This document shows, piece after piece, positions 44,609 through 64,000 of a stretch of 64,000 nucleotides of DNA. Source of the DNA: Candidatus Latescibacterota bacterium (GTDB lineage Bacteria; Latescibacterota; UBA2968). The position numbers and the translations under genes were made by a program. Each line of letters starts with the position of its first letter. The stretch's first letter is position 1. Below the pieces are notes generated by a model that was given only the letters and a program-made list of their open reading frames with translations, did not search any database and was not told the DNA's origin. The DNA is taken from NCBI GenBank assembly GCA_965204375.1, contig OZ241986.1:3968001-4032000 (forward strand), written 5' to 3'.

Positions 44609-45899
44609 TTGACTTAACAAACCATTTTGTGGAAAGTCAAAAGGGCGTGTAATGGCATATCTTACGTATAAGTACAAGCTGTATAGCCGTTGTGACCGCA
44701 ACAGGTATATCCATCAAGACATAGACGCTTTTGCAGGCGTGTATAACCACTTCATTGGGTTGCACAAGCGGTATTATCGGCGATTTAAGAAGTATCCAAG
44801 CAAATTCACTCTGATTAAGCACCTGACAAAGCTGAAAAAGACAGCGCGTTTTTCCCGCTGGCGTTTGTTGCCATCCCAAGCATTGCAGAATGTGATAGAA
44901 CGCATAGATTTTGGGTATCAGAAGTTCTTTGACAGAGAGAACAAGCGACCGCCTAAGTTTCGGTCTCGGTTCAGGTATCAGTCCTATACGCTGAAACAAG
45001 CAGGCTATGCGTTCTTGGATGGTAACAAAATTCAAATCGGCTTTGGTTTGTGTGGCACAATCAAGCGTATATTCAGGTATCACAAGAGTAGAGACTTCGA
45101 TAGAGAAAGTGTAAAGACAGTCACAATCAAACGTGACCGTGTAGGCGATTTGTGGTTATGTGTTGTTGCGAAGGCAGAAAGTTTCAAGTTGAGCATTGCC
45201 AAGACAGGTAAAACCGCAGGCTTTGACTTCGGCTTGAAAACATACTTGACTGCCTCTGACAATACACGGATGCAATCGCCTCAGTTTTTCAAACGCAACG
45301 CAAGGATGATCAAAAAGGCCAACCAGCAACTGTCCCGCAAGCAGAACGGCAGCAACAATCGTCACAGAGCAAGAAGCAACCTTGCCAGCGTGCATAGACG
45401 TGTTGCCAATCAACGCAGGAACTACCATTGGCAACTTGCCCATCACCTTTGCAAGCAATACGATGCCATGTATTTTGAGACGCTAAATATCAAGGCTATG
45501 CAAAGACTGTGGGGTAGAAAAATCAGTGACCTCGGCTTTTTTGACTTCTTGGCCATCCTCAAGTATGTCGCAGAAAAGACAGGCAAAGAATTTGAGCAAA
45601 TTGACAAATGGTTGCCAACGTCAAAGACGTGCTCTGCCTGTGGCAAGGTTAAAGAAAAACTTGCGTTGCGAGAAAGAATCTTTCGTTGTGGCTGTGGGCA
45701 TGTCATGGATAGAGACCTCAACGCAGCGATAAACATTCACAGGTGGGGACGTCCACCTTTGGAGGAGGCGACGTAAGACATAGCTCGTACAGTATGCTAT
45801 CGCTTTTGATACCACAATCCCTAACTGAAGCTACGGACTTAAGCACGCGCAAGCATGCCGTAGGCACATCCAAATGCTTTAGCTTTGGGAGTACGTCAA
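44609..45899 (+). mobile_element. Non-autonomous IS200/IS605-type element (tnpB only)
   Basis: Left hairpin TTGACTT...AAGTCAA at 44609-44640; right end ...TTTAGCTTTGGGAGTACGTCAA at 45899; the exact left boundary is uncertain. Confidence 0.7.
44652..45776 (+). CDS. tnpB: RNA-guided endonuclease TnpB
   Basis: RuvC D (GFDFG), E (FETLN) and D (DRDLNAA); zinc ribbon CSAC..CGC. Confidence 0.93.
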   Translation: MAYLTYKYKLYSRCDRNRYIHQDIDAFAGVYNHFIGLHKRYYRRFKKYPSKFTLIKHLTKLKKTARFSRWRLLPSQALQNVIERIDFGYQKFFDRENKRPPKFRSRFRYQSYTLKQAGYAFLDGNKIQIGFGLCGTIKRIFRYHKSRDFDRESVKTVTIKRDRVGDLWLCVVAKAESFKLSIAKTGKTAGFDFGLKTYLTASDNTRMQSPQFFKRNARMIKKANQQLSRKQNGSNNRHRARSNLASVHRRVANQRRNYHWQLAHHLCKQYDAMYFETLNIKAMQRLWGRKISDLGFFDFLAILKYVAEKTGKEFEQIDKWLPTSKTCSACGKVKEKLALRERIFRCGCGHVMDRDLNAAINIHRWGRPPLEEAT

Positions 45900-50439: not shown

Positions 50440-50487
50440 GAACAAAATGTTCAATCGAAAAGTGAAAAGTGAACAATGTGTTCACTT
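50440..50487. promoter_or_regulatory. Paired palindromes GAACA-N3-TGTTC (putative enhancer/UAS)
   Basis: Copies at 50440-50452 and 50471-50483, 31 bp apart; the second extends to AAGTGAACA-ATG-TGTTCACTT. Confidence 0.55.
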
Positions 50488-50583
50488 CTCAATTCGATAT
50501 TCAGCCTAACTTTTACTCGACAATAATATCTATGCGAAGTAAAAATAATGACTTACAAATATTATAATTCTAAAAGTTCACAT

Positions 50584-50599
50584 TGGCACACATGTTGCA
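50584..50599 (+). promoter_or_regulatory. Sigma-54 (-24/-12) promoter
   Basis: TGGCAC-ACATG-TTGCA matches the TGGCAC-N5-TTGCW consensus. Confidence 0.75.
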
Positions 50600-50699
50600 T
50601 ATATCTGTTTAAGCAGTAAAAAATCTGTATCGAATCGTGTGGAAAGCCATGCTCTGAACCTCAAATATTTAGACCGCGTTTATCGCACTGGAGAAAAAT

Positions 50700-51050
50700 A
50701 TGAACAAACAGAAAATACTGATTATAGATCACGATCCCGGCATTCTATCGATCCTTGTGGGATTTCTGAGCGATGAACCTTATGACATAAGCACAACGAG
50801 AGATGGGATAGAAGGGCTTGAAATATTGAGACGAGAGAAGATCGATCTCGCCATCGCTGAAATGTATATGGCAGGTCTCAATGGGGTAACTCTTTTGAAG
50901 TGTCTAAAGGAAGAGAAGATTCAGACAAACGTCCTGATCATGGAAAGTTTTGTGCCCCTGGAAGTAGCCGAAAAAATACTCAAAGCCGGTACTGCAGGCG
51001 TACAAGAGAATACATGGCATTTCTCCTACCCAGTATCGCACAAAAGTTAG
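50700..51050 (+). CDS. Stand-alone degenerate receiver (REC) domain protein
   Basis: KILIIDHD, DGIEGLE and MAGLNG pattern; phospho-Asp position is Glu and the KP motif is absent. Confidence 0.7.
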   Translation: MNKQKILIIDHDPGILSILVGFLSDEPYDISTTRDGIEGLEILRREKIDLAIAEMYMAGLNGVTLLKCLKEEKIQTNVLIMESFVPLEVAEKILKAGTAGVQENTWHFSYPVSHKS

Positions 51051-51241
51051 GCGTGGAGAAATTTAGACGCTTTCGGAAGGTGTTTGAGTTGAATGTTCAG
51101 AGGATTGTTTTTTGACGATTTTGGAATGCATCTCCCGCCCATAATTCTGAACGCCCGAAAGGAGGTACGAATAGAGAACTGATTGAATCACCGCATATCG
51201 TTGTTACTCAAGCAGTATAACCCTTAACAGGAGATTGTATC

Positions 51242-51784
51242 ATGTCAGAAAGTATTTTTGAACACACCACATCCATCGCAGGACTCACCTGCAAACCACT
51301 CGCCATTCTCTCTGAGACCATTTCACAAAAAGAAATGAACAAGGCGCGGGGTGGGGGTGGGAATGGACGAATTAAGATGCCGGGTGATGGCAAGATAGAT
51401 GACGGGATCACAGGTATGGATGAGCAAGACTGTCCCACATATGATTGTTACCCTGAGGGCGGCCACTTTGATACTGAGGGAAAAACCTTTACTCAGGTAG
51501 TTGGTCCTGATGTTGTCGAGGATCCGTTTGGTCCAATTTTAGGAGGCAGTGGCGGCGGTGGCGGCGGTGGTAGCTCAGAGTCAGATAATACCAACGATGA
51601 TGAGGGCCATTTGGGGGATTTTTGGAATTTTGACTTTTCAGATGACGGCACGGAAGATGACGGCACGGAAGATGAATGCACCGTCCCTTATGATTGTGGA
51701 GATGAAGAGAACGATGAAGGTAATAATGATGAAGGTAGCGGTCTGCCCGATGAGGAGAACAGTACGGAAGGTAATAATGGATAG
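51242..51784 (+). CDS. Putative exported precursor: double-glycine leader plus acidic Gly/Cys-motif core
   Basis: RBS AGGAG; ISQKEMNKARGG fits the LSxxELxxIxGG leader pattern; a C39 exporter lies downstream. Confidence 0.7.
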   Translation: MSESIFEHTTSIAGLTCKPLAILSETISQKEMNKARGGGGNGRIKMPGDGKIDDGITGMDEQDCPTYDCYPEGGHFDTEGKTFTQVVGPDVVEDPFGPILGGSGGGGGGGSSESDNTNDDEGHLGDFWNFDFSDDGTEDDGTEDECTVPYDCGDEENDEGNNDEGSGLPDEENSTEGNNG

Positions 51785-51837
51785 TTGAGGGTTCCTCGCT
51801 TTGAGTAAGCTGGCTCGCAAGAATATAAAAACAAAAG

Positions 51838-51868
51838 GAGGTTCTTTCAGGCTTGCTGGAAGAACCTC
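51838..51868 (+). terminator. 13-bp-stem hairpin downstream of the precursor gene
   Basis: GAGGTTCTTTCAG-GCTTG-CTGGAAGAACCTC followed by an AT-rich tract. Confidence 0.5.
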
Positions 51869-51972
51869 TAAATTTTATACTGTGTAGTGCAAGAATGTAT
51901 CCAGACATATAATAAGAATGTATCCGAACATATATACGAAGCAATCACTTCCAGCTTTGCCAGGTATCAGAT

Positions 51973-53334
51973 ATGAAAAAAATTTATGCTCTCATCTCAT
52001 TCCTCGTATGTGTCTTGTCGGCAGGCAGTTGCGCGGACTATCAGCTTATTGGGACGGAAGTATTATCTGAAGAACTCGTCGCGCAGCATTATACCATCAA
52101 TCCCAATCTCGACGTTGTTATCGTTGTAGATCGAACAACGCCGACCTTTGAATACCAGACCTTCTACTGCGCTGGCTGGGCAGATGAAGAGGAAGGTAAA
52201 CAAGGACGGCTACATTTCTTAGAGCATATCATGTCGGGTACCGGCAGTCAGGAATATGGGAGACTCAACCAAATCGTTAGCAAGAATGGAGGACAAAAAA
52301 ATGCTACTACCTATTATCATTTTACGCGCTTCACACTGAGATTTCCAAAGGACAAATTTGATCTCGCTGTTGAAATAGACTCAGACAGATTTTACAATAC
52401 AGTAATCAATGAAGAGGTCGTAGAAAAGGAAAAGAAAATCATCCTGACAGAAAGAAACCGCATGTTGGCAAACTTAACGCGAAGATTTACGTATTATTTT
52501 TTCGATTTGGTTTATAAAAAGAAGAATTTTGATGGCTTTGGTACTGAGGCGTTTATTAAACAACTCAATCCCATTGATTTGAGAGCGTATTATGAGAATC
52601 TTCTACGCCAACAAAAGAGATTGATCGTTGTCATCGGCGATGTAGATAGAGACTATGTCCTGATGAAATTGGACGAAGCGTATAGCTCTGCCAGTGCGAT
52701 GCAATCGCATGCAGACAGGAATGAGCCAGTACCGAGCCAATTGCCTGCATCTCAATTTCCCAACCCTGAAATCCTGGGCAGAAAGTTCAGGATTACTTCA
52801 AAGAACCTCAGTATTTCCAAGTTCAGAAAGAGTTGGGACACACCAAATTTAGGGCATCGAGACTATGTGGGATTGTCCATTATAGCCAACATTTTGAACA
52901 AAACTGCAAATTCCTTAAGATCTTATGCCGTTGACTCTGGACTTGCGAGAGTTTTCCACATAGAACTGAACTACTATAAAGGATTTGGTCTGATGAGTTG
53001 TACAGCAGACCTTCCCCATACTACGTCTCCAGACGCTATCCACGATATTATTCAGGTAGAGTTAGAGAAGCTGAAATCAATTTCTGAAGATGATCTTAAT
53101 GCAGCCCGCAATGAACTATTACACCGCCTGTATTCCACATTTTATGATCACTCAAGCATGGCTTATTCATTTGGGAAGGCATTTGCCCATGCCAACGATC
53201 CCCTCCTGTATCTCAAATTGATAAACGATATCAAATCCATTCAAAAAGAAAACATTCCGCGCATCATTAATCAATACCTGACGGATGATAATTCGATAAC
53301 TGTTTACCTGACGTTAAAAAAAAACAAAGAATAA
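51973..53334 (+). CDS. M16 (inverzincin) peptidase, catalytic subunit, copy 1, with signal peptide
   Basis: GRLHFLEHIM (HxxEH), NATT and EKKIILTE motifs. Confidence 0.85.
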   Translation: MKKIYALISFLVCVLSAGSCADYQLIGTEVLSEELVAQHYTINPNLDVVIVVDRTTPTFEYQTFYCAGWADEEEGKQGRLHFLEHIMSGTGSQEYGRLNQIVSKNGGQKNATTYYHFTRFTLRFPKDKFDLAVEIDSDRFYNTVINEEVVEKEKKIILTERNRMLANLTRRFTYYFFDLVYKKKNFDGFGTEAFIKQLNPIDLRAYYENLLRQQKRLIVVIGDVDRDYVLMKLDEAYSSASAMQSHADRNEPVPSQLPASQFPNPEILGRKFRITSKNLSISKFRKSWDTPNLGHRDYVGLSIIANILNKTANSLRSYAVDSGLARVFHIELNYYKGFGLMSCTADLPHTTSPDAIHDIIQVELEKLKSISEDDLNAARNELLHRLYSTFYDHSSMAYSFGKAFAHANDPLLYLKLINDIKSIQKENIPRIINQYLTDDNSITVYLTLKKNKE

Positions 53335-53443
53335 TGTGATGTGTAACTTCAAAATACCAAGCATTGAGATATAGGGAATTGTTCTTAATGTTTTTTTGAT
53401 ACAAAAAAATAGATATGAAAGTTCGCCCAAAAGGCAAATAAAT

Positions 53444-54814
53444 ATGTCTCCAAAAGTGATATTTAGCTTTGTCCTGTGTTACATGGTTGGCGTCCTATCC
53501 GCTTCTCCTGTCTGCCTTTTTGCTGCGGAAAACGCCCCACGGACTGGTATAGACAGAGTTGCAATCCCCAATCACCATATTTTTTATCGCAACGACAAAC
53601 GCGCGCCGTTGACTAAAATTGAGATTGTCTTTCTCGGGGCCGGGAGAAATCAGGAACAGCCTTCTAAGATTGGGCTTGCGGAAATGGTTTCCTGGTTAAT
53701 GTGGGAATACGCTAAAAAGCAGGGATATATAGATCAACTATCAGCATTAGGTACCCGTCTGAATGTCATTTCCAGTACACAATACCACAGGATAGTCATT
53801 TCCACCTTATCGAAGAACTGCGGCGAGTCCATAGAAATAGTCCGCGATCTCATACACAGCCTCGAGTTTTCTGAGTCTAATTTAAAATATGTAAAAAAAC
53901 TGATGGTGGCTGATTACCAAAATGGTCTGCGGAGAAGTACCTACCCGCTTATGCGAGATTTTGCACTTGCACAAACAAAAGAACTAAAAAAAACGAACTC
54001 CTTAAAAACACTCGAAAACCTCTCACATGAGGACGTCAGTCAATATTATGATCGGTTTCTGAAAACCGATGTGGTGTTTTTTAAGGTGATCTCAAACCTC
54101 GATTCCACCCGGGTTGCGAAGTTGCTTCGTCCAATTACAGAGACACGGCAAAGGGGTGGTTTTGTGCATTCACTGAAAATCCTAACAACGGATTATAGCT
54201 CTGGTCCTTCGGCTTTTGTCTTTAATTCAAACATAAAAAGTGTGTTCTGCCATTGGTTGATGCCCTGTGGCAGTGTGGGTGAAAAAAATTATATCCCCAC
54301 ACTCATATCCGATACACTTCGAGAAGATACTCATGGCCTGGTTATTCGGCATTTTAGAGAAGAATTGGGATTGGTTTATGGTCCTTCTTCTGAGGTGCGA
54401 TCGTCCGGAGGTATCAGGTATCTTAATATTTACGCCGATCCCCAACTCCAGAACAGCGAAGAATTGATTGTAAAAATGTCCGACTTCATCCGAGGACTTT
54501 CCGATAATCCTCGCTTTTGGGAGTTCCTCAAGGAACGCCGTGAAATTCTAAAGGTGTCAGATGTCTTCAACCAGACACCACAGCGAAGTCTTGACCGTGA
54601 GGTAAATAAAACCATTTACAACAGACCACAGCGAAAAGGCGGTTATGATGCAGTCACTGATGCTGAGGTGCGTGCTTTTCTCGAAAAGTTTTTTGTGCCA
54701 GAAAATATGATCATGATCTTTGTCGGACCTAAGGATCACATCATAGACATTTTGAAGAGACACTTGCCTGAAGTTGATATTCGCGTTCACGATGTCAAAG
54801 AATTGATTGAGTAA
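53444..54814 (+). CDS. M16 peptidase non-catalytic partner subunit, copy 1
   Basis: M16 fold motifs (GAG..E..GLA, FREELGLVY); no HxxEH; signal peptide. Confidence 0.8.
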   Translation: MSPKVIFSFVLCYMVGVLSASPVCLFAAENAPRTGIDRVAIPNHHIFYRNDKRAPLTKIEIVFLGAGRNQEQPSKIGLAEMVSWLMWEYAKKQGYIDQLSALGTRLNVISSTQYHRIVISTLSKNCGESIEIVRDLIHSLEFSESNLKYVKKLMVADYQNGLRRSTYPLMRDFALAQTKELKKTNSLKTLENLSHEDVSQYYDRFLKTDVVFFKVISNLDSTRVAKLLRPITETRQRGGFVHSLKILTTDYSSGPSAFVFNSNIKSVFCHWLMPCGSVGEKNYIPTLISDTLREDTHGLVIRHFREELGLVYGPSSEVRSSGGIRYLNIYADPQLQNSEELIVKMSDFIRGLSDNPRFWEFLKERREILKVSDVFNQTPQRSLDREVNKTIYNRPQRKGGYDAVTDAEVRAFLEKFFVPENMIMIFVGPKDHIIDILKRHLPEVDIRVHDVKELIE

Positions 54815-54860
54815 ACCGTCAGAAGCGGTGTACAACTGGTCGATTTACAGACCAGTTCAT

Positions 54861-55030
54861 CAGGATGGGCAGGATGCAAGGATGATCAGGATGAGAACCC
54901 GCAGATCAGAAGTAGGTAGGCGATAGGCGGATGCAGAGGAAGGCAAGCACGGACCTGCTTGCGTGCGGACAACCGCCCTCGCAGGCAAGTGAACAGGATG
55001 AAAACCCGTAGAGCAGAGGACGTAGCAATA
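54861..55030 (+). repeat. Composite intergenic repeat: 9-mer CAGGATG-type tract, nested palindrome and GATGAAAACCCGTAGAGCAG unit
   Basis: The GATGAAAACCCGTAGAGCAG unit recurs near 50159-50178; a similar 9-mer tract lies at 27518-27550. Confidence 0.6.
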
Positions 55031-55053
55031 ACCACTGACATGAGGAACCGACT

Positions 55054-55653
55054 GTGGAAGCGTTTATTATTTTGACCATTCTCATTATCGTATTTCTGGT
55101 GATCGGTGGCCGATGGGCAAAGAATTTCTTTGGTTGCTGCTGCCACGAGTGTGGAACCAAAATGCAGCCTTATGAGAAATTGTCCGATAGTGATAAGTCT
55201 GATATTCTGACATATTTCAGACGTTTTGAAGACCGCGAGCCAGACGTGGAGGGCATTTTTGCGTGTGGGAATTGCCTGCTGGTGTACGATGACTTTTCGG
55301 GCGAAAAGCGAACAATGGATGGCGACGAAAGGTCATTCTGCAAGGTGTGCAATTCCTATGGTGTATCGTATATAGGCCCCATGTCGTCTGACGATTTGGA
55401 GAAATTTCAGGAGCGGAACAAAAACCTGATTGAACCAATTGAGTGTCTCAGATGCAAAAGAAATCCTATAGGGGAGTATGACTGTGTGCCCTGCGACACA
55501 GAGATCAAGATAACGGCTTGTCGGCGTTGCTATTCGATCTATGCACAGATGCCAGTTAATGGTAGTCGATACAGATTTCAGGTCCTGCTTTCGGACAGGG
55601 AAATCATCAAAGATACACCCGACTCAAAATGGGGTGTATTTGAACCCGAGTAA
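55054..55653 (+). CDS. Membrane-anchored protein with six CxxC motifs
   Basis: N-terminal TM; CHEC, CGNC, CKVC, CLRC, CVPC and CRRC; RBS GAGGA before GTG. Confidence 0.65.
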   Translation: MEAFIILTILIIVFLVIGGRWAKNFFGCCCHECGTKMQPYEKLSDSDKSDILTYFRRFEDREPDVEGIFACGNCLLVYDDFSGEKRTMDGDERSFCKVCNSYGVSYIGPMSSDDLEKFQERNKNLIEPIECLRCKRNPIGEYDCVPCDTEIKITACRRCYSIYAQMPVNGSRYRFQVLLSDREIIKDTPDSKWGVFEPE

Positions 55654-55678
55654 ACGGTTATATGCGGTTTGAAACATT

Positions 55679-55710
55679 CTGGATTGCGGCTAAAACCATG
55701 CCGCAATGAC
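55679..55710 (+). repeat. REP-like palindromic element (variant with compensatory change)
   Basis: CTGGATTGCGGC..GCCGCAATGAC. Confidence 0.75.
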
Positions 55711-55781
55711 ACCCATTATTCGTCACTTTTCACATCTATATCCGTGTTAATCCGTGTTAATCTGTAGCTGCATTTGAAAAC

Positions 55782-58700
55782 ATGATAAAACGAACCGACC
55801 TATATGCCTCTCTGAGACCTCATGCAGAGAAAATGCAGGTCAATCTCGGGGAGGTTTTATTTTCTGAAGGCGACAGGGGCGATTGTTTTTACTATGTCGT
55901 ATCCGGGCAACTCAGGGTTTTAACGAGAGACCCCAATAACGAGATGCAAACCCTGGGTTATCTCTTTCCCGGCGACCATTGCGGAGAAGGCGCGTTGCTC
56001 ACAGGTAAACCGCGCAGGGCAACGGTTCGAGCGGTTGAACCCTCAATCGTGCTAAAAATATCTCAAAGAGGCTTTCACGCCCTCGTATCAGAGCATCGGG
56101 AACTGACTCCTTACCTGCTCGACCAAGTGCAGGACATCGCCTATCGGAACTTCACAAAATTTCTGAAACTGGACACTGTAAACCTCCCTGAAGCCATGCA
56201 GCTTTTCTTTCAATGTCTGGAGCGGAAAGTTATTGCAGCAGAGGAAAAAGCATTATGGCGAGATGAAGAAGCAAAAGGACTCTATCTCATTGGGCGCGGA
56301 ACCTTGCAATTGAGAGAGGCGGACCAGCCCGCCAAAAGGTTAAAACCGGGCGACTTTTTTGGCGGCATAGATGATCAGCTCACTATTGAAACAGAAACAG
56401 AAGTCGTGCTCTACACCCTTTCGCACATCGCCCTCGCCAGAGTGCTTGAAAGTGCCCCCCAACTCATCCGGGTTTTCGAGAAGACCGATCAGAATGAACA
56501 AGAAGAACCGCTCAAGATATTGCCACAAAATGGTCGGATTAAAACGATAGAGATCGAGCCTGAAAATAGCATCTCGGATCACAGCCCTCGAAAACTGCGA
56601 AACTACATCACATTTCCCTACATCAAACAACACGATGAGACCGATTGCGGCGCGGCTTGTCTCGGCATGATCTGTCAGTATTATGGGCAATCCATTGGCT
56701 TAAACCGTCTGCGAGACATGGCCAATGTCTCGCGGGAAGGCACATCCCTATCTGCGCTTGCCGAAGCCGCTGAAAACCTGGGCTTTTTAACGCGAGGTGT
56801 GCGGATTGGATACAGTGAAATCGGAGACAGAGACCTGCCACTTATCGCGCACTGGGAAGGCTATCACTTTGTCGTTCTGTATCGGATCAGTTCAAAATAC
56901 GCATGGATAACAGACCCTGCACTTGGGCGCAGAAAAATTTCTCGCAAAGAATTTGAAGACAAATGGTCCAAACTCGCCTTAATACTCGAATACACCGACA
57001 AGGTCTCGAGATACAGGGGAAGAAAATCATCGTTCAGGCGGTTTTTCCCACTCGCCCGCCCATATCTCGGCATCCTCGTCGAAATCATGATGGCCTCCCT
57101 TTTGCTGAACCTCTTTGGCCTTGCCTCACCTCTTTTTACCCAGATGATCCTCGACCAGGTCCTCGTTCATCAAGATACCAGTCTGCTCAATCTCATGCTT
57201 TTAGGCATGATCATTATCGCCTTATTTCGGATCGCCACATCTTCGCTGCGCAACTACCTGATAGGGTATGTGGGGGCGCGCATCAGTATCTCGATGTTAT
57301 CGCACATCTACCACCATCTTCTCCGTCTGCCCATGCGATTTTTCGCCCTCCGCAGAACCGGTGAAATCATGACGCGCTTTCGAGAAAGCCAGTACTTGAG
57401 AAGCTTATTGACAGAAACGGCTATTTCAGCCGTCCTTGATGCGGTCATGATTTTTGTCTATTTGGGTCTGATGTTCTATTACCACACCACTTTGACACTT
57501 TGGGTTTTGGCATTCATACCGCTTAGCATTATCCTGACATTGATCTACACCCCCATCCTCAAGTCCATCAACCAACGATCTTTTCTCGCCCGTTCGGAAT
57601 GGTCATCCGTACTCATCGATTCCCTGCGTGGCATTGAAGTCATAAAAACCCTCGCAGTCGAAAAATCCACGCGATGGTTATGGGAAGAACGCTTGACCCA
57701 GGAAATCAAAATTGGTTTTACCGCGATCAAAACAAATATGCTATTTGGGTCTTTTGGACAGTTGAACAAGGTTTTGGGTAGCACCATCGTGCTCTGGTAT
57801 GGCGCGAACCTGGTCATTCAAGGCGACTTATCAGTCGGTCAGCTAATCGCTTTCAATATGCTCAGTGGCAGTGTATTGGGACCGATCATGGGATTGATTA
57901 ACCTGTGGCCACAGATTCAACTGGCGAAAATAGGACTGGACCGATTAAACGACATCTACGATATGCGAACCGAGTCATCGCGCAACCGCAACTATTCGGT
58001 TCAACTCACAGACGTAGAGGGACACATCGCATTTGACAACGTGTTCTTCCGGTATGGATCGGGATCGACAGAGCCTTATGTCTTAAGCGATATAAATTTG
58101 GACATAAGACCCGGACAGAAAGTAGCCATAGTAGGTCGTAGCGGTGCGGGCAAGACAACACTGGTAAAACTCATACCCCGACTATTTGATCCCACAGAGG
58201 GATCAGTCACCCTCGATGGTACAGACCTGCGCGAATTGGAACAAGCAGAGATCGCATTTAAAAAAGCTGAATTTGATCTGCAACAAACCCTGCCGCAAAA
58301 AAGAATTCTGGCAAAAGAGACCATCTCCGCGCTTGAACATCGCGTTCGTGTCATGCAAGCCGCGATGCAGACCTACCGGGAAGCACTTGGGAATCATACA
58401 GAAACGTCTCAACCTCCCGATATCGAGATCGAAATACAATTCCGATCCGCAGAAGTAGAACATTTGAAACAGCGATATGAGCAAAACCAAAAATTGTACG
58501 AAAAGAAACTCATCAGCCTTGCGGCACTAAATGAAGCCAAAGTTCGCTATCTGAGCGCGTTGGCAGAACTGCCCGCGCGGATGGCAGAGATCAATCGCTA
58601 TGAGGTATCCCTAAAAGACTTAAAACGCCAAATCCTCGAAGAACGACTCGAACTTGAACGCACGCGAGCCAATTTCCAAAATGCTTATGACATTGCAGCA

Positions 58701-59222
58701 GCCAGACTCAAACAGGCGAGACAAGCGGTTAATCGATCCGTTGACGCAGACATCGATTTAATTCTCGCACCCGAATCGGGAATCGTCACACAAGTACTGG
58801 TCAATACACCCGGTCAAGTAGTCAATAAAGGCGAGACACTGGTAACCATTGCGCCAGCCTCGACACCGATTGTAGCCGAAGCTCTGATCTTGAACAAAGA
58901 CGTGGGTCTGCTGTCATCTGGACAAAAGGTAAAACTCAAATTTGAAGCATTTCCATTTCAGGACTACGGCATCCAACACGGCTATTTGAGACAGATTTCA
59001 CCTGATGCAATGGGCGATGAGGGTTCGGGAACCGTGTTTAGAGGTATTATTGATCTTGAGAACACGACCATTCTTGTACACGGCGAGGAAAAAGCGTTCA
59101 TGTTCGGCATGAAGGGCACAGCAGAAATCATAACAGATCGCCAGTCCATTTTGATGCTCGCGCTCAATCCATTGCGACAATTGCGCGAAATAGCCGCACT
59201 TTCGCCAGAGGCTGAAAAATAA
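55782..59222 (+). CDS. cNMP-binding + C39 peptidase + ABC membrane domain + partial NBD, fused in frame to the C-terminal part of HlyD
   Basis: EGDRGD/GEGALL..RRATV (cNMP); QHDETDCGAAC, HFVV and DPA (C39 catalytic residues); Walker A GRSGAGKT; no LSGGQ or Walker B; ILAPESGIV and KFEAFPFQDYG (HlyD). Confidence 0.85.
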   Translation: MIKRTDLYASLRPHAEKMQVNLGEVLFSEGDRGDCFYYVVSGQLRVLTRDPNNEMQTLGYLFPGDHCGEGALLTGKPRRATVRAVEPSIVLKISQRGFHALVSEHRELTPYLLDQVQDIAYRNFTKFLKLDTVNLPEAMQLFFQCLERKVIAAEEKALWRDEEAKGLYLIGRGTLQLREADQPAKRLKPGDFFGGIDDQLTIETETEVVLYTLSHIALARVLESAPQLIRVFEKTDQNEQEEPLKILPQNGRIKTIEIEPENSISDHSPRKLRNYITFPYIKQHDETDCGAACLGMICQYYGQSIGLNRLRDMANVSREGTSLSALAEAAENLGFLTRGVRIGYSEIGDRDLPLIAHWEGYHFVVLYRISSKYAWITDPALGRRKISRKEFEDKWSKLALILEYTDKVSRYRGRKSSFRRFFPLARPYLGILVEIMMASLLLNLFGLASPLFTQMILDQVLVHQDTSLLNLMLLGMIIIALFRIATSSLRNYLIGYVGARISISMLSHIYHHLLRLPMRFFALRRTGEIMTRFRESQYLRSLLTETAISAVLDAVMIFVYLGLMFYYHTTLTLWVLAFIPLSIILTLIYTPILKSINQRSFLARSEWSSVLIDSLRGIEVIKTLAVEKSTRWLWEERLTQEIKIGFTAIKTNMLFGSFGQLNKVLGSTIVLWYGANLVIQGDLSVGQLIAFNMLSGSVLGPIMGLINLWPQIQLAKIGLDRLNDIYDMRTESSRNRNYSVQLTDVEGHIAFDNVFFRYGSGSTEPYVLSDINLDIRPGQKVAIVGRSGAGKTTLVKLIPRLFDPTEGSVTLDGTDLRELEQAEIAFKKAEFDLQQTLPQKRILAKETISALEHRVRVMQAAMQTYREALGNHTETSQPPDIEIEIQFRSAEVEHLKQRYEQNQKLYEKKLISLAALNEAKVRYLSALAELPARMAEINRYEVSLKDLKRQILEERLELERTRANFQNAYDIAAARLKQARQAVNRSVDADIDLILAPESGIVTQVLVNTPGQVVNKGETLVTIAPASTPIVAEALILNKDVGLLSSGQKVKLKFEAFPFQDYGIQHGYLRQISPDAMGDEGSGTVFRGIIDLENTTILVHGEEKAFMFGMKGTAEIITDRQSILMLALNPLRQLREIAALSPEAEK

Positions 59223-59223
59223 A

Positions 59224-60045
59224 ATGGCTGATTCAATTGATCCCGTCATCATTCAAATAAACGAGACACAAATCCGTTTATCTCATATCGTGAAATCAAT
59301 GCGGGCGGCTAACAAGGACAGCTTGCACGACCTCTTTACGCAACGCGGTCTGATCTTCCAAATTGCCCAACGAGAAAAAATTAAAATTTCTCGTGAGGAA
59401 CTGCAAAAGAGTATAGACCAATGGCGGTATAAAAACAGATTGGAAAGTGTTGAGGATACAGAAAACTATTTATCACAACGCAATATCTCCTTCACTGACA
59501 TGGCACGGGAAATTGAATACCAGATGCTCCAGGAGCGATTGAAAACGCAAATCACCACTGAGCAAATTCAAGCGCATTTTGCAAGCCAGAAATTGGCGTC
59601 TGAACGGCGGGAAATATGCTGGATTCTGGTCCAGGAACGAGACATTGCCGAAGAGATCGCCATGCAGATCAGAGACGGAGGACGAGATTTTCATACCCTC
59701 GCGCGTCAATATTCCCTCGATGAGCGCACGCGCCCTGCCAGCGGGTATCTCGGTCGCCAGAGCCGACGAGACTTGCTCCATGATGTTGCGCCCTTATTAT
59801 TTGCCGCCGAAGTAGGGTCGGTCATTGGCCCCATAAAAGTAGAAACAGGCTATGCGCTGTATTATATTCAACAACACTGCCCCGCTGTACTCGATGAAGC
59901 CACAAAAGCGCGTTGTGTGCAGGAACTCTATCAACTTCGTTTAAAACGCGAAGCAAAGCGCAGTCACATATCGTATCCATTCCTATATTCGATATACACA
60001 GAGGACGCCTTTCCCAAAGAGAATGTGCATATCTCAGAGAAGTGA
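59224..60045 (+). CDS. PpiC/parvulin-type peptidyl-prolyl isomerase (foldase)
   Basis: DFHTLARQYSLD..SGYLG and VIGPIK motifs; SurA/PrsA-like N-terminus; no signal peptide. Confidence 0.82.
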   Translation: MADSIDPVIIQINETQIRLSHIVKSMRAANKDSLHDLFTQRGLIFQIAQREKIKISREELQKSIDQWRYKNRLESVEDTENYLSQRNISFTDMAREIEYQMLQERLKTQITTEQIQAHFASQKLASERREICWILVQERDIAEEIAMQIRDGGRDFHTLARQYSLDERTRPASGYLGRQSRRDLLHDVAPLLFAAEVGSVIGPIKVETGYALYYIQQHCPAVLDEATKARCVQELYQLRLKREAKRSHISYPFLYSIYTEDAFPKENVHISEK

Positions 60046-60068
60046 TAATGTTCCATATCCTGATGTAA

Positions 60069-60133
60069 TTCAGGCTTGCTGGAAGAATTTTCAGATTTTA
60101 TACTGATCAGTGCAAGAATGTATCCAGACATAT
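60069..60133 (+). repeat. Second copy of the non-coding module at 51846-51911
   Basis: TTCAGGCTTGCTGGAAGAA...TTTTATACTG...AGTGCAAGAATGTATCCAGACATATA is shared. Confidence 0.85.
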
Positions 60134-60144
60134 AGAGGTTCGTT

Positions 60145-61131
60145 ATGAAAAAAATACGGTTGTTCAATCTCACCCTCTTGTTGATCTCGGGCCTGTTTAC
60201 AGGTTGTGGCAGTACAGGACTCTATGTTACTGTAACCCAGCCTGCTGAAATTAATCTAAAAGACTTTGACAAAATTGCGGTTGGAGAAATTAAAGGTTCG
60301 GGAAGCGGCGTCTTATCGGCACTCAGCGACCTTGTCCAGGTTGTAGGAGGTGGAGAAACCAAAGACTCAGGAAGCCATAAATTCTCCGCCGAGTTGACAC
60401 AGGTCCTCTTTGAATCTGGACGATTTGAAGTCCTGGATCACGAAAGCCTGAAGATGGGTTTTAGCCAGGACAATCTTACCGGAAATATCGCCCTCATCTC
60501 TGGCACTATTTCAGAATACAACTACAGCGAGGATTTAACCCACAAAGATGTAGAGAAAAAAGATAAAAAGACGGGTGAAGTCGATACCACGCGAACATAC
60601 TATCGTGAAGGAATTACAAAAGTAAGTGTCAGCCTGCGTATTGCGGATTTGCGCACATCAAAAATTTTAGCAACCAGGAAGTTTGACAAATCTGAGAGCG
60701 CAAAAGAATCGAGGAAGAACTCAAAGCCGCCCCATATTGATCGCTCGCGTCTTTTTGAGACGTGCCGAACGCAAATTATTCGCTCTTTTATGCGGATGAT
60801 TGTGCCTTATACCGAGCGTGTATATGTCTCATTTGAAACCGACAAAGAAATGCCAGAATTGGAACGTGGCTTTAAAATGGTCAAGCTGGGCAATTGGGAT
60901 GCTGCGCTTGACATCTTTCAAAGGGTAACCGAGACTTATCCCAATTCCCCTTTAGTCCATAAGGCATATTACAATCTTGGTCTGGGCTATATGTACACGG
61001 ATCAGTTCGACCAGGCGCGAACTGCATTAGAAGAAGCCTATGCCAGGAAGTCCGAAGCAAAATATCTAAATGCTATCAAAAAACTGAATATACGCATTGA
61101 AGATAAGCGTCGGCTGGAAGAGCAGATGTGA
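60145..61131 (+). CDS. Lipoprotein with CsgG/TolB-N-like domain and C-terminal TPR repeats
   Basis: LFTGC lipobox; IAVGEI..ESGRFEVLD; AYYNLGLGY TPR pattern. Confidence 0.65.
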   Translation: MKKIRLFNLTLLLISGLFTGCGSTGLYVTVTQPAEINLKDFDKIAVGEIKGSGSGVLSALSDLVQVVGGGETKDSGSHKFSAELTQVLFESGRFEVLDHESLKMGFSQDNLTGNIALISGTISEYNYSEDLTHKDVEKKDKKTGEVDTTRTYYREGITKVSVSLRIADLRTSKILATRKFDKSESAKESRKNSKPPHIDRSRLFETCRTQIIRSFMRMIVPYTERVYVSFETDKEMPELERGFKMVKLGNWDAALDIFQRVTETYPNSPLVHKAYYNLGLGYMYTDQFDQARTALEEAYARKSEAKYLNAIKKLNIRIEDKRRLEEQM

Positions 61132-61185
61132 TTTGGCTCAGAGGATGTACGAAACGGCTATTTCCAACTTTGCCGAGTATCAAAC

Positions 61186-62673
61186 ATGATAAAAACCTGC
61201 GCGATCATCTCATTCCTCGTATGCATCTTGCCAACGGGCACTTGCCATTCTTATCAGCTTGTTGGAGCGGAAGCATTATCTGAAGAACTCGTCGCGCAAC
61301 ACTACACCATCAACACCAACCTCGACGCCGTCATCGTTGTAGATAGAACAATCCCAACCTTTGAATACCATACCTACTACAGTGCTGGCTCGACAGATGA
61401 AGAGGAAGGGAAACAAGGACGGCTACACTTCTTAGAGCACATCATGGCAGGTACTGGAAGCCATGAGCCGGGAAAACTCAACGAAATTATCGTCAAGAAT
61501 GGAGGTCAAAATTATGCCGCTACAACTATCCATCATATGTACTTAAGAATGCGATTTCCGAAGGACAAATTTGACCTTGCAGTTGAAATAGACCGCGATA
61601 GATATTACGGCACGTTGATCAATGAAGAGGTCGTTGAAAACGAAAAGAAAATTGTACTAACGGAAAAAAGTCGTAATTCAGCAAACTCAAACAGAAAATT
61701 CTCCAATCGTTTTTGGGGCCTGGTCTATAAAAAAAAGGATTTTAGTGGCGTTGGGACTGAGGACTTTATTAAACAACTCGAAGCCGATGATTTGGAAGAT
61801 TACTATGATAATTTCCTGCGCCGCCAGAAGAGATTGGTCGTGGTGGTCGGCGATGTGGATATGGACCATGTCCTGACCAAACTGGACGAAGCCTATGGCA
61901 ATGAGCAAATACCAGACGAATTATCGAGCGAATCACCTTCTCCTCAATTTCCCAATCCTGAAATACTCGAAAAAAAAGTAAAAGACACTTCAAAAAGTCT
62001 CCGTATTGCCAAATTCAGGAAAAGTTGGCAAACCCCTCATTTAGGCCATCGCGACTATGCAACCTTGCTCATTCTTGCTCGCATTATGACCAAAACCTCT
62101 AATTCCTTGCGATCTTCTGTGATTGATGCCAAGCTCGCCCGGATTTTCAGGGTGTCGTTTTACCACTATAAAGGATTTAGTTTGCTGAGTTGCACGGCAG
62201 ACCTGCCGACCGACGCTTCCATAGATGCTATAGAGAATGCTATCCAAACAGAATTGGAGGAAATTAGAGCGAGCGGTGTCTCTGAGGACGAATTTACTGC
62301 GGCCCAAAATCTGCAATTAAAATCAATGTATTCCAGATTTTATGACAGATCGAGAATGGCCCTTGAGTTCGGGCGGGCATTCGCCCATGCCAACGATCCC
62401 TTACTATATCCAAAAATGATAAAAGATCTCAAATCTGCCCGCAGAGACGACATACCGCGCCTTGTAGATCAATATCTGACGAATGACAATTCCATAACCC
62501 TCTCACTAACGATGCCAGAAAAAAAACGGTCTCTAATCACCGTGATATTTGGGAGTATTCTCATTATTTTTCCAGCTATTATGGTTCTATTTCCTGTGAT
62601 ATGGTTTATCAGAAAACTGATTAGTAAATCCTCCCCAAAGGCCAATGAATATGCTCCTGAAAGTGATACTTAG
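61186..62673 (+). CDS. M16 peptidase catalytic subunit, copy 2, with signal peptide and C-terminal TM anchor
   Basis: GRLHFLEHIM; clear paralog of 51973; hydrophobic tail LITVIFGSILIIFPAIMVLFPVIWF. Confidence 0.85.
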   Translation: MIKTCAIISFLVCILPTGTCHSYQLVGAEALSEELVAQHYTINTNLDAVIVVDRTIPTFEYHTYYSAGSTDEEEGKQGRLHFLEHIMAGTGSHEPGKLNEIIVKNGGQNYAATTIHHMYLRMRFPKDKFDLAVEIDRDRYYGTLINEEVVENEKKIVLTEKSRNSANSNRKFSNRFWGLVYKKKDFSGVGTEDFIKQLEADDLEDYYDNFLRRQKRLVVVVGDVDMDHVLTKLDEAYGNEQIPDELSSESPSPQFPNPEILEKKVKDTSKSLRIAKFRKSWQTPHLGHRDYATLLILARIMTKTSNSLRSSVIDAKLARIFRVSFYHYKGFSLLSCTADLPTDASIDAIENAIQTELEEIRASGVSEDEFTAAQNLQLKSMYSRFYDRSRMALEFGRAFAHANDPLLYPKMIKDLKSARRDDIPRLVDQYLTNDNSITLSLTMPEKKRSLITVIFGSILIIFPAIMVLFPVIWFIRKLISKSSPKANEYAPESDT

Positions 62674-64000
62674 TTTTGCCCTGTGCTACGTGGTTGGTAT
62701 CCTGTCCGCTTATGCAGAGATTTCTAACCACCAAATTTTTTATCGCCAAGACAAACGCGCCCCGTTGACCAAAATTGAAATCGTCTTTCTCGGAGCGGGA
62801 AGCAACCAGGAATCGCCTGCTCAAAATGGACTGGTAGAGATAGCCTCAAAGTTGATTTGGAAGGACATAAAAAAGCGAGGGTACATAGATCAACTGGCAG
62901 TATTAGGCACTGAGTTATATGTCTTCGCCAACACAACATCCCTGACCGTATCCATTTCTACCCTGTCTGAGAATTGCGCTGAGTCCATAGAAATAGTCCG
63001 CGATTCCATACACAACTTCGATTTTTCCGAGTCCGACCTGGAAGATGTGAAAGAGCGAGAGGTGACTAATTATCGAAATGATCGGGAAAGAAATACCGCT
63101 AATCTTATGAGAAATTTTGCACTTGCACGAACAAAAGGAATAAAGAAACTCAGATCCTTAAAAACGCTGAAAAACCTTTCTGCAAAGGACATCAGACAGT
63201 ATTATGCGCGGCTTTTGAAAACAGAAGTGGTGTTTTTTAAGATACTCTCAAACCGAGATTCCACCGAGATCACCAAAATGCTTCATCCAATTATAGAAAA
63301 ACGAGAGACCCGACGACAGGCAGGTGGGTTTGTGCATTCATTGGCACCTTCAGAGGCCAATTATTATTTTGGTCCTTCGGCTTTTGTCTTTGAGAATTAT
63401 TCAAACTTAAAAAATGTTTTCTGTTATTGGCTGATCCCCTATGGGAGTATAGGGGAAACAAATTATATTTCTCCAATGATATCCATGATGCTTGGGCGAT
63501 CTGGTGCCCAAGGGTTGCTCTACAAATATTTTAGAGAAGAGTTGGGATTGGTCTATAGTACTGCTTGCAGTTATCGATCATCAAAAAATATCAGGTTTCT
63601 CGAAATTTATGCAGATCCCCAGTTACAGAACAGCGAAGAACTGATTGTAAAAATGTCCGACTTCATCCGAGGGCTTCCCGACAACCCCCGCTTTTGGGAG
63701 GGAATAAAAGCGTTGCGTGAGAATAGCAATATCGCCTATGCCCATGTCCATGAACGATTGACACCACAACAAAGACTGAACAGGGAGGTATATAGCGCCA
63801 TCTATAATCCTCCAAGCCGCAAAGGCGGTTATGATTCGGTTACTGATGAGGAGGTGTATGCCTTTCTCGAAAAATTCTTTGTCCCGCAGAATATGATCAT
63901 GATCTTTGTCGGTCCGAAGGATTACATCATAGACATTCTGAATAGACACTTGCCTGAAGTTGATATTCGCGTTCACAATACCAAAGAATTGATTGAGTAA
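62651..64000 (+). CDS. M16 peptidase non-catalytic partner subunit, copy 2
   Basis: Paralog of 53444 (DKRAPLTKIEIVFLGAG, FREELGLVY, IYADPQLQNSEELIVKMSDFIRGL). Confidence 0.82.
   Translation: MLLKVILSFALCYVVGILSAYAEISNHQIFYRQDKRAPLTKIEIVFLGAGSNQESPAQNGLVEIASKLIWKDIKKRGYIDQLAVLGTELYVFANTTSLTVSISTLSENCAESIEIVRDSIHNFDFSESDLEDVKEREVTNYRNDRERNTANLMRNFALARTKGIKKLRSLKTLKNLSAKDIRQYYARLLKTEVVFFKILSNRDSTEITKMLHPIIEKRETRRQAGGFVHSLAPSEANYYFGPSAFVFENYSNLKNVFCYWLIPYGSIGETNYISPMISMMLGRSGAQGLLYKYFREELGLVYSTACSYRSSKNIRFLEIYADPQLQNSEELIVKMSDFIRGLPDNPRFWEGIKALRENSNIAYAHVHERLTPQQRLNREVYSAIYNPPSRKGGYDSVTDEEVYAFLEKFFVPQNMIMIFVGPKDYIIDILNRHLPEVDIRVHNTKELIE

Follow-up and report, generated by a model that had tools for sequence, protein, structure and literature searches.

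We analysed a 64,000-nucleotide (nt) stretch of DNA, hereafter the window, which covers positions 3,968,001-4,032,000 of the single 6.34-Mb contig of a Candidatus Latescibacterota bacterium. Its last part carries a gene cluster, a putative secretion locus, in which the gene for an acidic precursor protein lies beside genes for M16 peptidase subunits and an exporter of the ATP-binding cassette (ABC) type. Between 50.7 and 64.0 kb, ten co-oriented open reading frames (ORFs) occupy the plus strand and the opposite strand holds no sizeable gene. The genes, strand and gene order given by a first-pass annotation, a model's reading of the DNA letters alone, were all recovered, with ten ORFs counted in the window. 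The stretch is also AT-rich, as that annotation had described, with a GC content of 0.41-0.49 over 50-64 kb, compared with 0.54-0.55 at 46-50 kb and 0.508 for the whole genome. Domain calls on the window proteins were made with Pfam and NCBIfam, and the features are as follows (aa, amino acids):

50584-50599, + strand: sigma-54 type -24/-12 motif TGGCAC-N5-TTGCA, about 100 nt 5′ of the regulator gene
50700-51050, + strand: truncated response regulator, receiver only, 116 aa (Pfam Response_reg, E 4.8e-15)
51242-51784, + strand: acidic precursor with a double-glycine (GG) leader, 180 aa (no Pfam or NCBIfam match)
51837-51879, + strand: stem-loop and T-run between precursor and M16 alpha 1, the strongest terminator-like site of the region
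51973-53334, + strand: M16 alpha 1, with HFLEH at residues 81-85 (Pfam Peptidase_M16 and M16_C)
53396-54814, + strand: M16 beta 1, without HxxEH (Pfam M16_C, 58 bits; M16 match below cut-off)
55054-55653, + strand: CxxC membrane protein, 199 aa (no Pfam or NCBIfam match)
55782-59222, + strand: fused exporter/HlyD ORF, 1146 aa (two cNMP stretches, C39, ABC membrane domain, partial ABC_tran, HlyD)
59224-60045, + strand: PpiC-like (parvulin) protein (Pfam Rotamase, E 5.5e-12)
60145-61131, + strand: tetratricopeptide repeat (TPR) lipoprotein (Pfam TPR; CsgG and DUF6340 matches below cut-off)
61186-62673, + strand: M16 alpha 2, with HFLEH and a C-terminal hydrophobic anchor (Pfam)
62645-64000, + strand: M16 beta 2, without HxxEH, its stop codon at the last bases of the window (Pfam)
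64790-65392 (extended coordinates): second CxxC gene, just past the window, 79% identical to the first CxxC gene

The second gene of the cluster encodes a protein that divides into a 38-aa double-glycine leader (51242-51355) and a 142-aa core rich in acidic residues (Asp plus Glu, D+E, 28%; Lys plus Arg, K+R, 3%; Gly, Pro and Ser together 32%). It is the sole copy in its own genome, and comparison with solved structures in the Protein Data Bank (PDB) returned nothing better than E 0.3. With the leader as query against 5.8 billion proteins, 52 distinct proteins of 139-219 aa were retrieved, which makes a family of at least 52 members; none of these (0/52) has a Pfam domain or an informative name. 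The motif CKPL...GG is present in all 52 and the leader ends in ARGG or VRGG in 48, features of a double-glycine leader substrate with a predicted cleavage site. Over 1326 pairs, the leader had a median pairwise identity of 84% and the core one of 26%; likewise, in eight homologues from related loci, a near-invariant 38-residue leader ending in GG is followed by cores that could not be aligned with confidence. The cores of the 52 proteins (101-181 residues) are mosaics with short modules in common. Their median D+E content is 28%, rising to 42% in the last 30 residues, and their median K+R content is 3%; some carry Cys-rich motifs and others have no cysteine. The first-pass annotation had suggested that the exported acidic protein might be neutralised, an idea without basis because the cores, at 0-10% K+R, contain no cationic part to mask. 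Searching 168 genomes of the phylum with a profile of the leader produced 14 strong matches, all in the window's genus and there in 8 of 21 genomes; three matches outside the genus had E values of 0.003-0.008 and covered the profile in part. Class II microcin and bacteriocin loci combine a small core (below about 10 kDa) with a dedicated immunity gene and antibacterial activity. At the window locus no small immunity-type gene was recognised, and the cores of the family are long and strongly acidic.

Precursor and M16 genes are consistently adjacent when the search starts from the precursor. The leader-profile search was independent of M16, and at 10 of its 14 places the start of an M16 alpha gene lies within 1.5 kb downstream; another place opens an array of three precursor genes with M16 alpha at its end, and at the other three a single ORF precedes the M16 genes. 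All 14 precursor genes are upstream of the M16 genes and on the same strand. From the M16 side, thirty loci with 34 full-length M16 alpha genes were found with an M16 alpha alignment, all labelled Latescibacterota except one 2.6-kb contig filed under another name, and the CxxC gene follows the M16 pair in 17 of the 34 cases. The module of regulator, precursor, M16 alpha and M16 beta is repeated as a unit, for example with two full units in locus L010 and two in L023. Full synteny was seen in L033, which carries the regulator, precursor, M16 alpha, M16 beta and CxxC genes, a 991-aa exporter, a 439-aa HlyD and the PpiC-like gene. The gene-neighbourhood check that the first-pass annotation had called for thus came out in its favour: M16 pair, cNMP-C39 exporter and GG-leader acidic ORF were repeatedly found side by side in related genomes. 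A 14-bp hairpin with a T-run is present in 9/9 spacers between precursor and M16 alpha and in 0/2 spacers between two precursors. In an alignment of these hairpins 96.8% of cells are paired, three pairs have changed on both sides, and 0 of 500 shuffles reached the covariation score. The window copy at 51837-51879 is a predicted terminator or attenuator.

Each M16 pair appears to combine an active and an inactive subunit. HFLEH is found in both window alphas and in 34/34 alpha homologues, whereas it is absent from both window betas and HxxEH occurs in 0/35 beta homologues, a pattern that predicts pairing as an M16B heterodimer. The second pair resembles the first (alpha 2 is 64% identical to alpha 1, with a 42-residue C-terminal extension, and beta 2 is 65% identical to beta 1), and the true start of beta 1 is likely the ATG at 53444. 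An envelope location of the subunits is plausible because they begin with hydrophobic signal-like segments (read from the N termini without a predictor) and because 27 of 34 alpha homologues have a C-terminal hydrophobic anchor or extension. To this extent the first-pass proposal of envelope M16 pairs is supported; that they process the exported acidic protein is inferred from genetic linkage. The clade is isolated: among 1.84 billion, only 20 representatives reach E 1e-30 or better, and its nearest outgroups are metagenome proteins of 31-43% identity. The comparison showed no specific relationship in sequence to the M16 genes of the cyanobacterial clusters discussed below. A match in charge between the M16 subunits and their acidic cargo was considered and was not decisive (alpha pI 6.3-6.9, beta pI 8.6-9.2). 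Among solved structures, M16 alpha comes closest to the active subunit of a zinc peptidase that is a heterodimer (3AMJ/3AMI, E 7e-21), the M16B peptidase of Sphingomonas sp. A1, in which an active subunit is joined by an inactive partner as in the window pair, at low identity; we know of no link of that peptidase to a secretion locus. In PqqF/G and AlbE/F, too, active and inactive M16 subunits are encoded beside the precursor. These two pairs and PttP1/PttP2 are cytoplasmic and act on short modified peptides, whereas the window subunits have signal-like N termini. PttP1/PttP2 are, in the part of the source available to us, heteromeric M16 proteases of lanthipeptide maturation and resemble the window pair in having an active and an inactive subunit beside the precursor (PMC10885120).

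The exporter gene of the window is broken. Where the first-pass annotation had read a cNMP-C39-ABC exporter and an HlyD protein, the domains are indeed present, but they form a single ORF across an 872-nt deletion that removed the HlyD anchor and the greater part of the ATPase domain. Pfam assigned to this ORF two cNMP_binding stretches (E 1.2e-29), Peptidase_C39 (E 6.7e-40, positions 2-131 of 133) and ABC_membrane (E 6.9e-57), so that the N-terminal part of a long cNMP-type peptidase-containing ABC transporter (PCAT), comprising cNMP, C39 and ABC membrane domains, is complete. NCBIfam aligned the 1146-aa ORF first to TIGR01846 (positions 3-526 of 694) and then to TIGR01843 (positions 95-413 of 422), and against an intact paralogue in the same genome it matches residues 26-847 of the 1018-residue ABC protein, then residues 118-451 of the 460-residue HlyD. 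The junction, at 58230-58240, is in frame: the 872 nt are missing between two CGCGAATT repeats, in DNA that is 91-92% identical to the intact gene pairs of four relatives. Lost with them are the ATPase domain past Walker A and the HlyD membrane anchor (the first ~117 residues). Of a complete nucleotide-binding domain (Walker A, signature, Walker B, H-loop) only Walker A is left, and the window copy of the adaptor lacks the N-terminal membrane anchor of an HlyD protein. The orthologues in L033, L026, L017 and L006 have the full nucleotide-binding domain. An assembly artefact was considered for this deletion and for that in the regulator gene (below) and was rejected: the deletions are taken as real because both junctions lie at 5-8 nt microhomologies and because Logan contigs from two samples of one study span them with 0 differences. 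At the exporter junction, a 4295-nt sponge metatranscriptome contig from another study, about 93% alike, is longer by 865 letters and represents the intact version of a relative; the same RNA library contains contigs over the exporter, HlyD, parvulin-like and lipoprotein genes.

Similar damage recurs elsewhere. The same genome has an intact locus at 250099-255924 (L001), with a 1018-aa exporter, a 460-aa HlyD and a PpiC-like gene and with no M16, and a further exporter locus at 5824244-5832713 (L002), with a TPR protein, two distant CxxC paralogues and a DUF3267-like membrane protein. The exporter of L002 is broken by two deletions, a frameshifting deletion of 139 residues and an ATPase-HlyD fusion. 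L001 and L002 each have a GG-type precursor of their own (123 aa and 137 aa), unrelated to the window family. In-frame fusions of the exporter's ATPase domain to an anchor-less HlyD have been seen three times, independently and with different breakpoints: in the window, in L002 (5.83 Mb) and in genome G083 (C1:536001-543000, L056), where 511 nt were lost and the fused ORF has 1241 aa. That all three are in frame may be chance (1 in 27 if unselected) or may reflect selection against polar effects on downstream genes. Exporters at least 80% identical to the L033 type occur at 11 places in 10 of the 21 genomes of the genus, and 4 of the 11 copies are damaged. The recurrence of exporter-disabling deletions shows a fast turnover of such loci. 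Extra ORFs are inserted within the cluster in the related loci L004, L006, L013 and L017. Also conserved is an ORF of 133-140 aa, lacking a Pfam match and absent from the window, which lies 5′ of the exporter gene in L013, L017 (12891-13313) and L023.

Upstream of the precursor, the -24/-12 motif behind the proposed promoter was recovered. TGGCAC-N5-TTGCA is the sole exact match in the 64-kb window, and the identical motif stands 5′ of the regulator gene in five loci, six times in all (L018, L022, L023 (twice), L025 and L033); in an alignment of the seven sequences it forms an invariant block and the flanks diverge. The genome contains rpoN. The ATPase domain of enhancer-binding proteins has about 19 strong matches there, none of them within about 50 kb of the locus. 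The regulator of the locus is of the receiver-AraC (REC-AraC) type. Taken as a motif, sigma-54 control is well supported. The first-pass annotation called the gene behind the motif a pseudo-receiver. A receiver domain is present, but alignment with intact orthologues (263-284 aa, receiver plus HTH_18/HTH_AraC) indicates that it is the remnant of a regulator with an AraC-type helix-turn-helix (HTH) domain. Its DNA is 90% identical to that of L023 up to ~50995-51002, where 411 nt are missing and a frameshift leaves a 116-aa stump; out-of-frame remnants of the last ~30 HTH residues persist at ~50950-51084.

Three further proteins are encoded in the cluster. The CxxC protein has the pairs C30/C33, C71/C74 and C156/C159, invariant in 17 sequences, and probably consists of an N-terminal helix followed by a cytoplasmic zinc-ribbon domain, an orientation read from the flanking charges. 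It has no Pfam or NCBIfam match, a profile search of the PDB gave nothing better than E 0.23, and an atlas search returned only leads at 0.84; an AlphaFold2 model from the 17-row alignment had a mean pLDDT of 53.6, too low for a fold search. Dispersed short hairpin repeats lie on either side of the first CxxC gene (54815-54893 and 55672-55711), with ~30 and ~27 partial copies genome-wide, and public contigs break there. The PpiC-like protein has no signal segment. Its score of 70.9 bits on TIGR04500, the model of a putative peptide maturation system protein, falls below the curated cut-off of 180, as do those of the isomerases beside cyanobacterial exporters (48-80 bits) and of two paralogues in the same genome (~88), and from these scores it is related to TIGR04500, not a member. 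It is 22% identical (E 1e-21) to an isomerase beside a cyanobacterial exporter. A modelled complex with the leader scored 0.06 against a mark of 0.32, which counts neither for nor against binding. For the lipoprotein (AlphaFold model, pLDDT 86.2), the description as CsgG-like found support at fold level: Foldseek placed its N-terminal domain with CsgG, HpaA, PelC and LptE at E 5.6e-6 to 5e-4, with TM scores of only 0.3-0.6. Its homologues have CsgG, LpoB and DUF6340 matches, and C21 is invariant in 32 sequences. The lipoprotein is 93-95% identical in L020 and L027, where its gene is also 5′ of the M16 alpha gene. Contigs of metagenome run X4 skip the lipoprotein gene (60105-61168) and join the PpiC-like region to that of M16 alpha 2; the gene is therefore a variable part of the locus.

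Clusters of this general type have been catalogued before. Wang, Fewer and Sivonen (2011) assigned 145 clusters from cyanobacteria to groups, and according to the accessible part of their paper groups I, II and VI share a long exporter, HlyD and a SurA-like rotamase, to which group II (23 clusters in 15 genomes) adds an M16 domain, read by those authors as responsible for a further, second cleavage (PMC3140520). Truncations and frameshifts were reported to be frequent in the cyanobacterial clusters (PMC3140520). By gene content the window locus has the predicted components of group II, a long cNMP (CAP_ED)-C39-ABC exporter, HlyD, a SurA-like rotamase and M16, with GG precursors nearby. On the definition given there, it belongs to a cluster type catalogued in 2011 yet uncharacterised and is not a new kind, and the term undescribed in the first-pass annotation was too strong (PMC3140520). 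The two differ in several respects, as far as the accessible text describes group II: the window locus is from another phylum; its precursors are acidic, of 139-219 aa, and are not HetP, NHLP or Nif11; the Latescibacterota M16 is a signal-bearing active/inactive pair, often tethered, where for group II the M16 is given as a domain; and the Latescibacterota loci additionally have a CxxC membrane protein, a REC-AraC regulator and a sigma-54 promoter (PMC3140520). A literature search of titles and abstract openings found no paper on this Latescibacterota system.

Among individual exporters the nearest comparison is HetC of Nostoc PCC 7120, which, in the text accessible to us, combines a cNMP-type domain with C39 and ABC, requires its peptidase and ATPase residues, and has a regulatory cNMP domain that bound ppGpp in vitro (PMC10986499). 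The window exporter likewise has cNMP-type, C39 and ABC parts; unlike HetC as described there, where no M16 partner is mentioned, it lies beside M16 genes, has two cNMP stretches and its ATPase domain is deleted (PMC10986499). For a second cleavage after export, the portion of the literature available describes CylB/CylA, LicT/LicP and MrsT/AprE, in which an exporter cuts at GG, GS or GA and an extracellular protease acts next; that second protease is dedicated, signal-bearing and encoded in or near the cluster (PMC10885120). By the same account, CylA, LicP and AprE are subtilisins that act on modified lanthipeptides in Gram-positive bacteria, whereas the window system would use an M16B heterodimer in a diderm on an unmodified cargo of ~140 residues (PMC10885120).

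The trio of exporter, HlyD and isomerase also occurs on three cyanobacterial plasmids (Tolypothrix, Leptolyngbya and Nostoc) and very probably on two Calothrix plasmids, where the neighbouring genes carry no annotation beyond hypothetical; none of these five plasmid exporter loci has an annotated M16. M16 partners in cyanobacteria were also sought by tblastn of M16 alpha against 72,556 plasmids, which gave 32 records, all rhizobial or Methylobacterium pitrilysins of 21-27% identity. At three Calothrix and Nostoc plasmid loci (L053, L054 and L055) the exporter set lies beside genes for giant proteins (S8/S53 peptidase, YD-repeat, Ig-domain), and this type of exporter may therefore serve very large substrates too.

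Taken together, gene content, the leader/core pattern and linkage make it very likely that this is a secretion locus for double-glycine cargo. The overall explanation that fits best, and that we regard as probable, is a lineage-restricted type I (PCAT) secretion and maturation locus of sponge-associated Latescibacterota, of which the window holds a decayed copy. In intact relatives, the sigma-54 promoter would drive the genes for the REC-AraC regulator and the precursor, and the conserved hairpin behind the precursor gene would lower read-through into the genes downstream. A cytoplasmic parvulin-like protein probably holds the precursor export-competent, and the cNMP-regulated C39-ABC exporter with HlyD would remove the 38-residue leader and export a core of 100-180 residues that is hypervariable, very acidic and probably disordered. 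By analogy with CylB/CylA, LicT/LicP and MrsT/AprE, a Sec-exported, mostly membrane-tethered M16B heterodimer may then cut the exported protein in a second, extracytoplasmic step. In the genome studied here, microhomology deletions took the DNA-binding domain of the regulator, most of the exporter ATPase domain and the HlyD anchor. As its gene is written, the window system is predicted to be unable to export through its own exporter, and any remaining export of the window precursor would need the intact paralogous exporter at 0.25 Mb.

On linkage and precedent, cleavage of the exported cargo by the M16 pair as a maturation step is the best single reading of what the pair does, although we put its chances at slightly under even. 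Several observations weigh against it or against the overall explanation. Export by the classical HlyD/TolC route would skip the periplasm, the expected place of a tethered M16 pair. The cores have no conserved cleavage site, and M16 divergence does not follow core divergence. A precursor lies within 2.5 kb upstream of only 9 of the 34 M16 pairs, and an exporter within 10 kb of only 10. In the genome studied here, the pairs at 2419490-2422204 and 4573591-4576411 have no precursor, CxxC gene or exporter nearby, and the neighbours of the former (an oxidoreductase and a convergent RND pump) are kept in L009 and L030; since stand-alone pairs occur in conserved synteny, the pair is not exclusive to this system. 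Co-occurrence of the exporter speaks for the overall explanation, the L033 type being present in 7 of the 8 genomes that have the leader family and in 3 of the 13 that lack it; these counts are descriptive only because the compared genomes are close kin and not independent. As encoded, the window exporter is predicted to be incapable of hydrolysing ATP and the window regulator incapable of binding DNA. Evidence of transcription is weak, coming from one RNA library, the one used of four RNA runs, with contigs ~90-95% alike, and such libraries may hold DNA.

Speculatively, the CsgG-like lipoprotein of some modules leaves room for a periplasmic intermediate. The locus could make a new class of secreted sponge-symbiont products (for example cation- or mineral-binding, or a host-directed matrix) by a route so far not known for exporters with a peptidase domain, a periplasmic or surface intermediate being cut by the tethered M16B heterodimer with the lipoprotein and the CxxC protein as dedicated parts; we consider this rather unlikely. 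Alternatively, the M16 pair might protect the producer or clear waste, degrading cargo or leader fragments that have leaked or returned into the periplasm, with no maturation. Its subunits look extracytoplasmic and are mostly tethered, and an HlyD-type route should bypass the periplasm. The pairs are ~60-70% identical while the cores are unrelated, which would suit a non-specific degrader of disordered peptides. However, the cores are acidic and of low complexity with no recognisable toxin domain, which leaves a need for immunity unclear, and the tight co-transcriptional layout with its attenuator is usual for maturation genes, although immunity genes are still possible; we judge protection unlikely.

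The pair could also be a general envelope peptidase that has expanded in the lineage and came to lie beside the precursor through modular duplication, sharing no pathway with it. The 25 of 34 pairs without a nearby precursor and the orphan pairs in conserved synteny fit this, as do the four close pairs against one precursor in the genome studied here and the size of the family (of the candidates scored, 288 proteins reach E 1e-10 or better). Against it, 14/14 precursors identified with no reference to M16 precede M16 genes on the same strand, the conserved hairpin ties precursor and M16 into one transcription unit, and the four-gene module is repeated as a unit in L010 and L023, and this explanation is quite unlikely. 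A pathway for a peptide made by ribosomes and then post-translationally modified (RiPP), with a modifying enzyme unrecognised (such as the CxxC zinc-ribbon protein, of no known family) or encoded elsewhere, is very unlikely: a conserved leader with a hypervariable core is a RiPP hallmark, the 38 conserved leader residues exceed the ~15 that C39 domains read and could include an N-terminal half recognised by such an enzyme, and some cores have Cys-rich motifs, but neither the locus nor its 1.4-kb continuation encodes a known modifying domain, the cores are far longer than usual RiPP cores, and some lack cysteine. The first-pass annotation had likewise seen no radical S-adenosylmethionine (rSAM), LanM, YcaO or ATP-grasp enzyme, and the Pfam and NCBIfam search found none of these and no other modifying domain between 50.4 and 65.4 kb, so that the locus is not a RiPP cluster in the sense of encoding an enzyme that modifies the core.

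Clusters of cNMP-C39-ABC exporter, HlyD and rotamase are common in cyanobacteria and, apart from HetC, functionally uncharacterised. The present family offers an unusually clear set of substrates, 52 proteins with one leader, each genomic copy examined being tied to an M16 pair, and the cargo is itself unusual, consisting of long, highly acidic and probably disordered proteins of uncultured sponge symbionts. The idea of a second cleavage by M16, put forward in 2011 (PMC3140520), becomes directly testable with one precursor, one protease pair and one exporter.

The surroundings of the locus were also inspected. As the first-pass annotation had anticipated, the locus continues beyond position 64000, with the second CxxC gene; it extends 1.4 kb past the window and ends at a convergent RelA/SpoT gene, followed by a glucan phosphorylase gene, on the other strand. 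No known RiPP enzyme follows the window end; the annotation had named a known RiPP class downstream as grounds for refuting its proposal. On the 5′ side lies a sugar-type ABC importer, preceded by transposase genes. A DDE transposase gene (DDE_Tnp_1_4, 41701-43059) and an IS605 OrfB/TnpB-like gene (44652-45776) are both in an AT-rich stretch ~5-9 kb 5′ of the locus.

Paralogues of the REC-AraC regulator (47-55% identical) head other acidic-protein clusters on the minus strand of the same genome, at ~3594001-3602000, 3690001-3703500 and 3782001-3791000. Two of these clusters contain HlyD, a 571-aa ABC protein without C39, an acidic protein of 147 or 169 aa and an S8 subtilisin, and one of the two has the exact sigma-54 motif. 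These sister clusters with S8 proteases may point to a general design in which an acidic cargo is accompanied by a private protease. The third cluster encodes a 585-aa enzyme, an 83-aa Asp/Cys-rich peptide and a TonB-dependent receptor. Over 349 nt, the sequence 5′ of the window regulator shares 77% identity with that 5′ of the cluster at 3.79 Mb.

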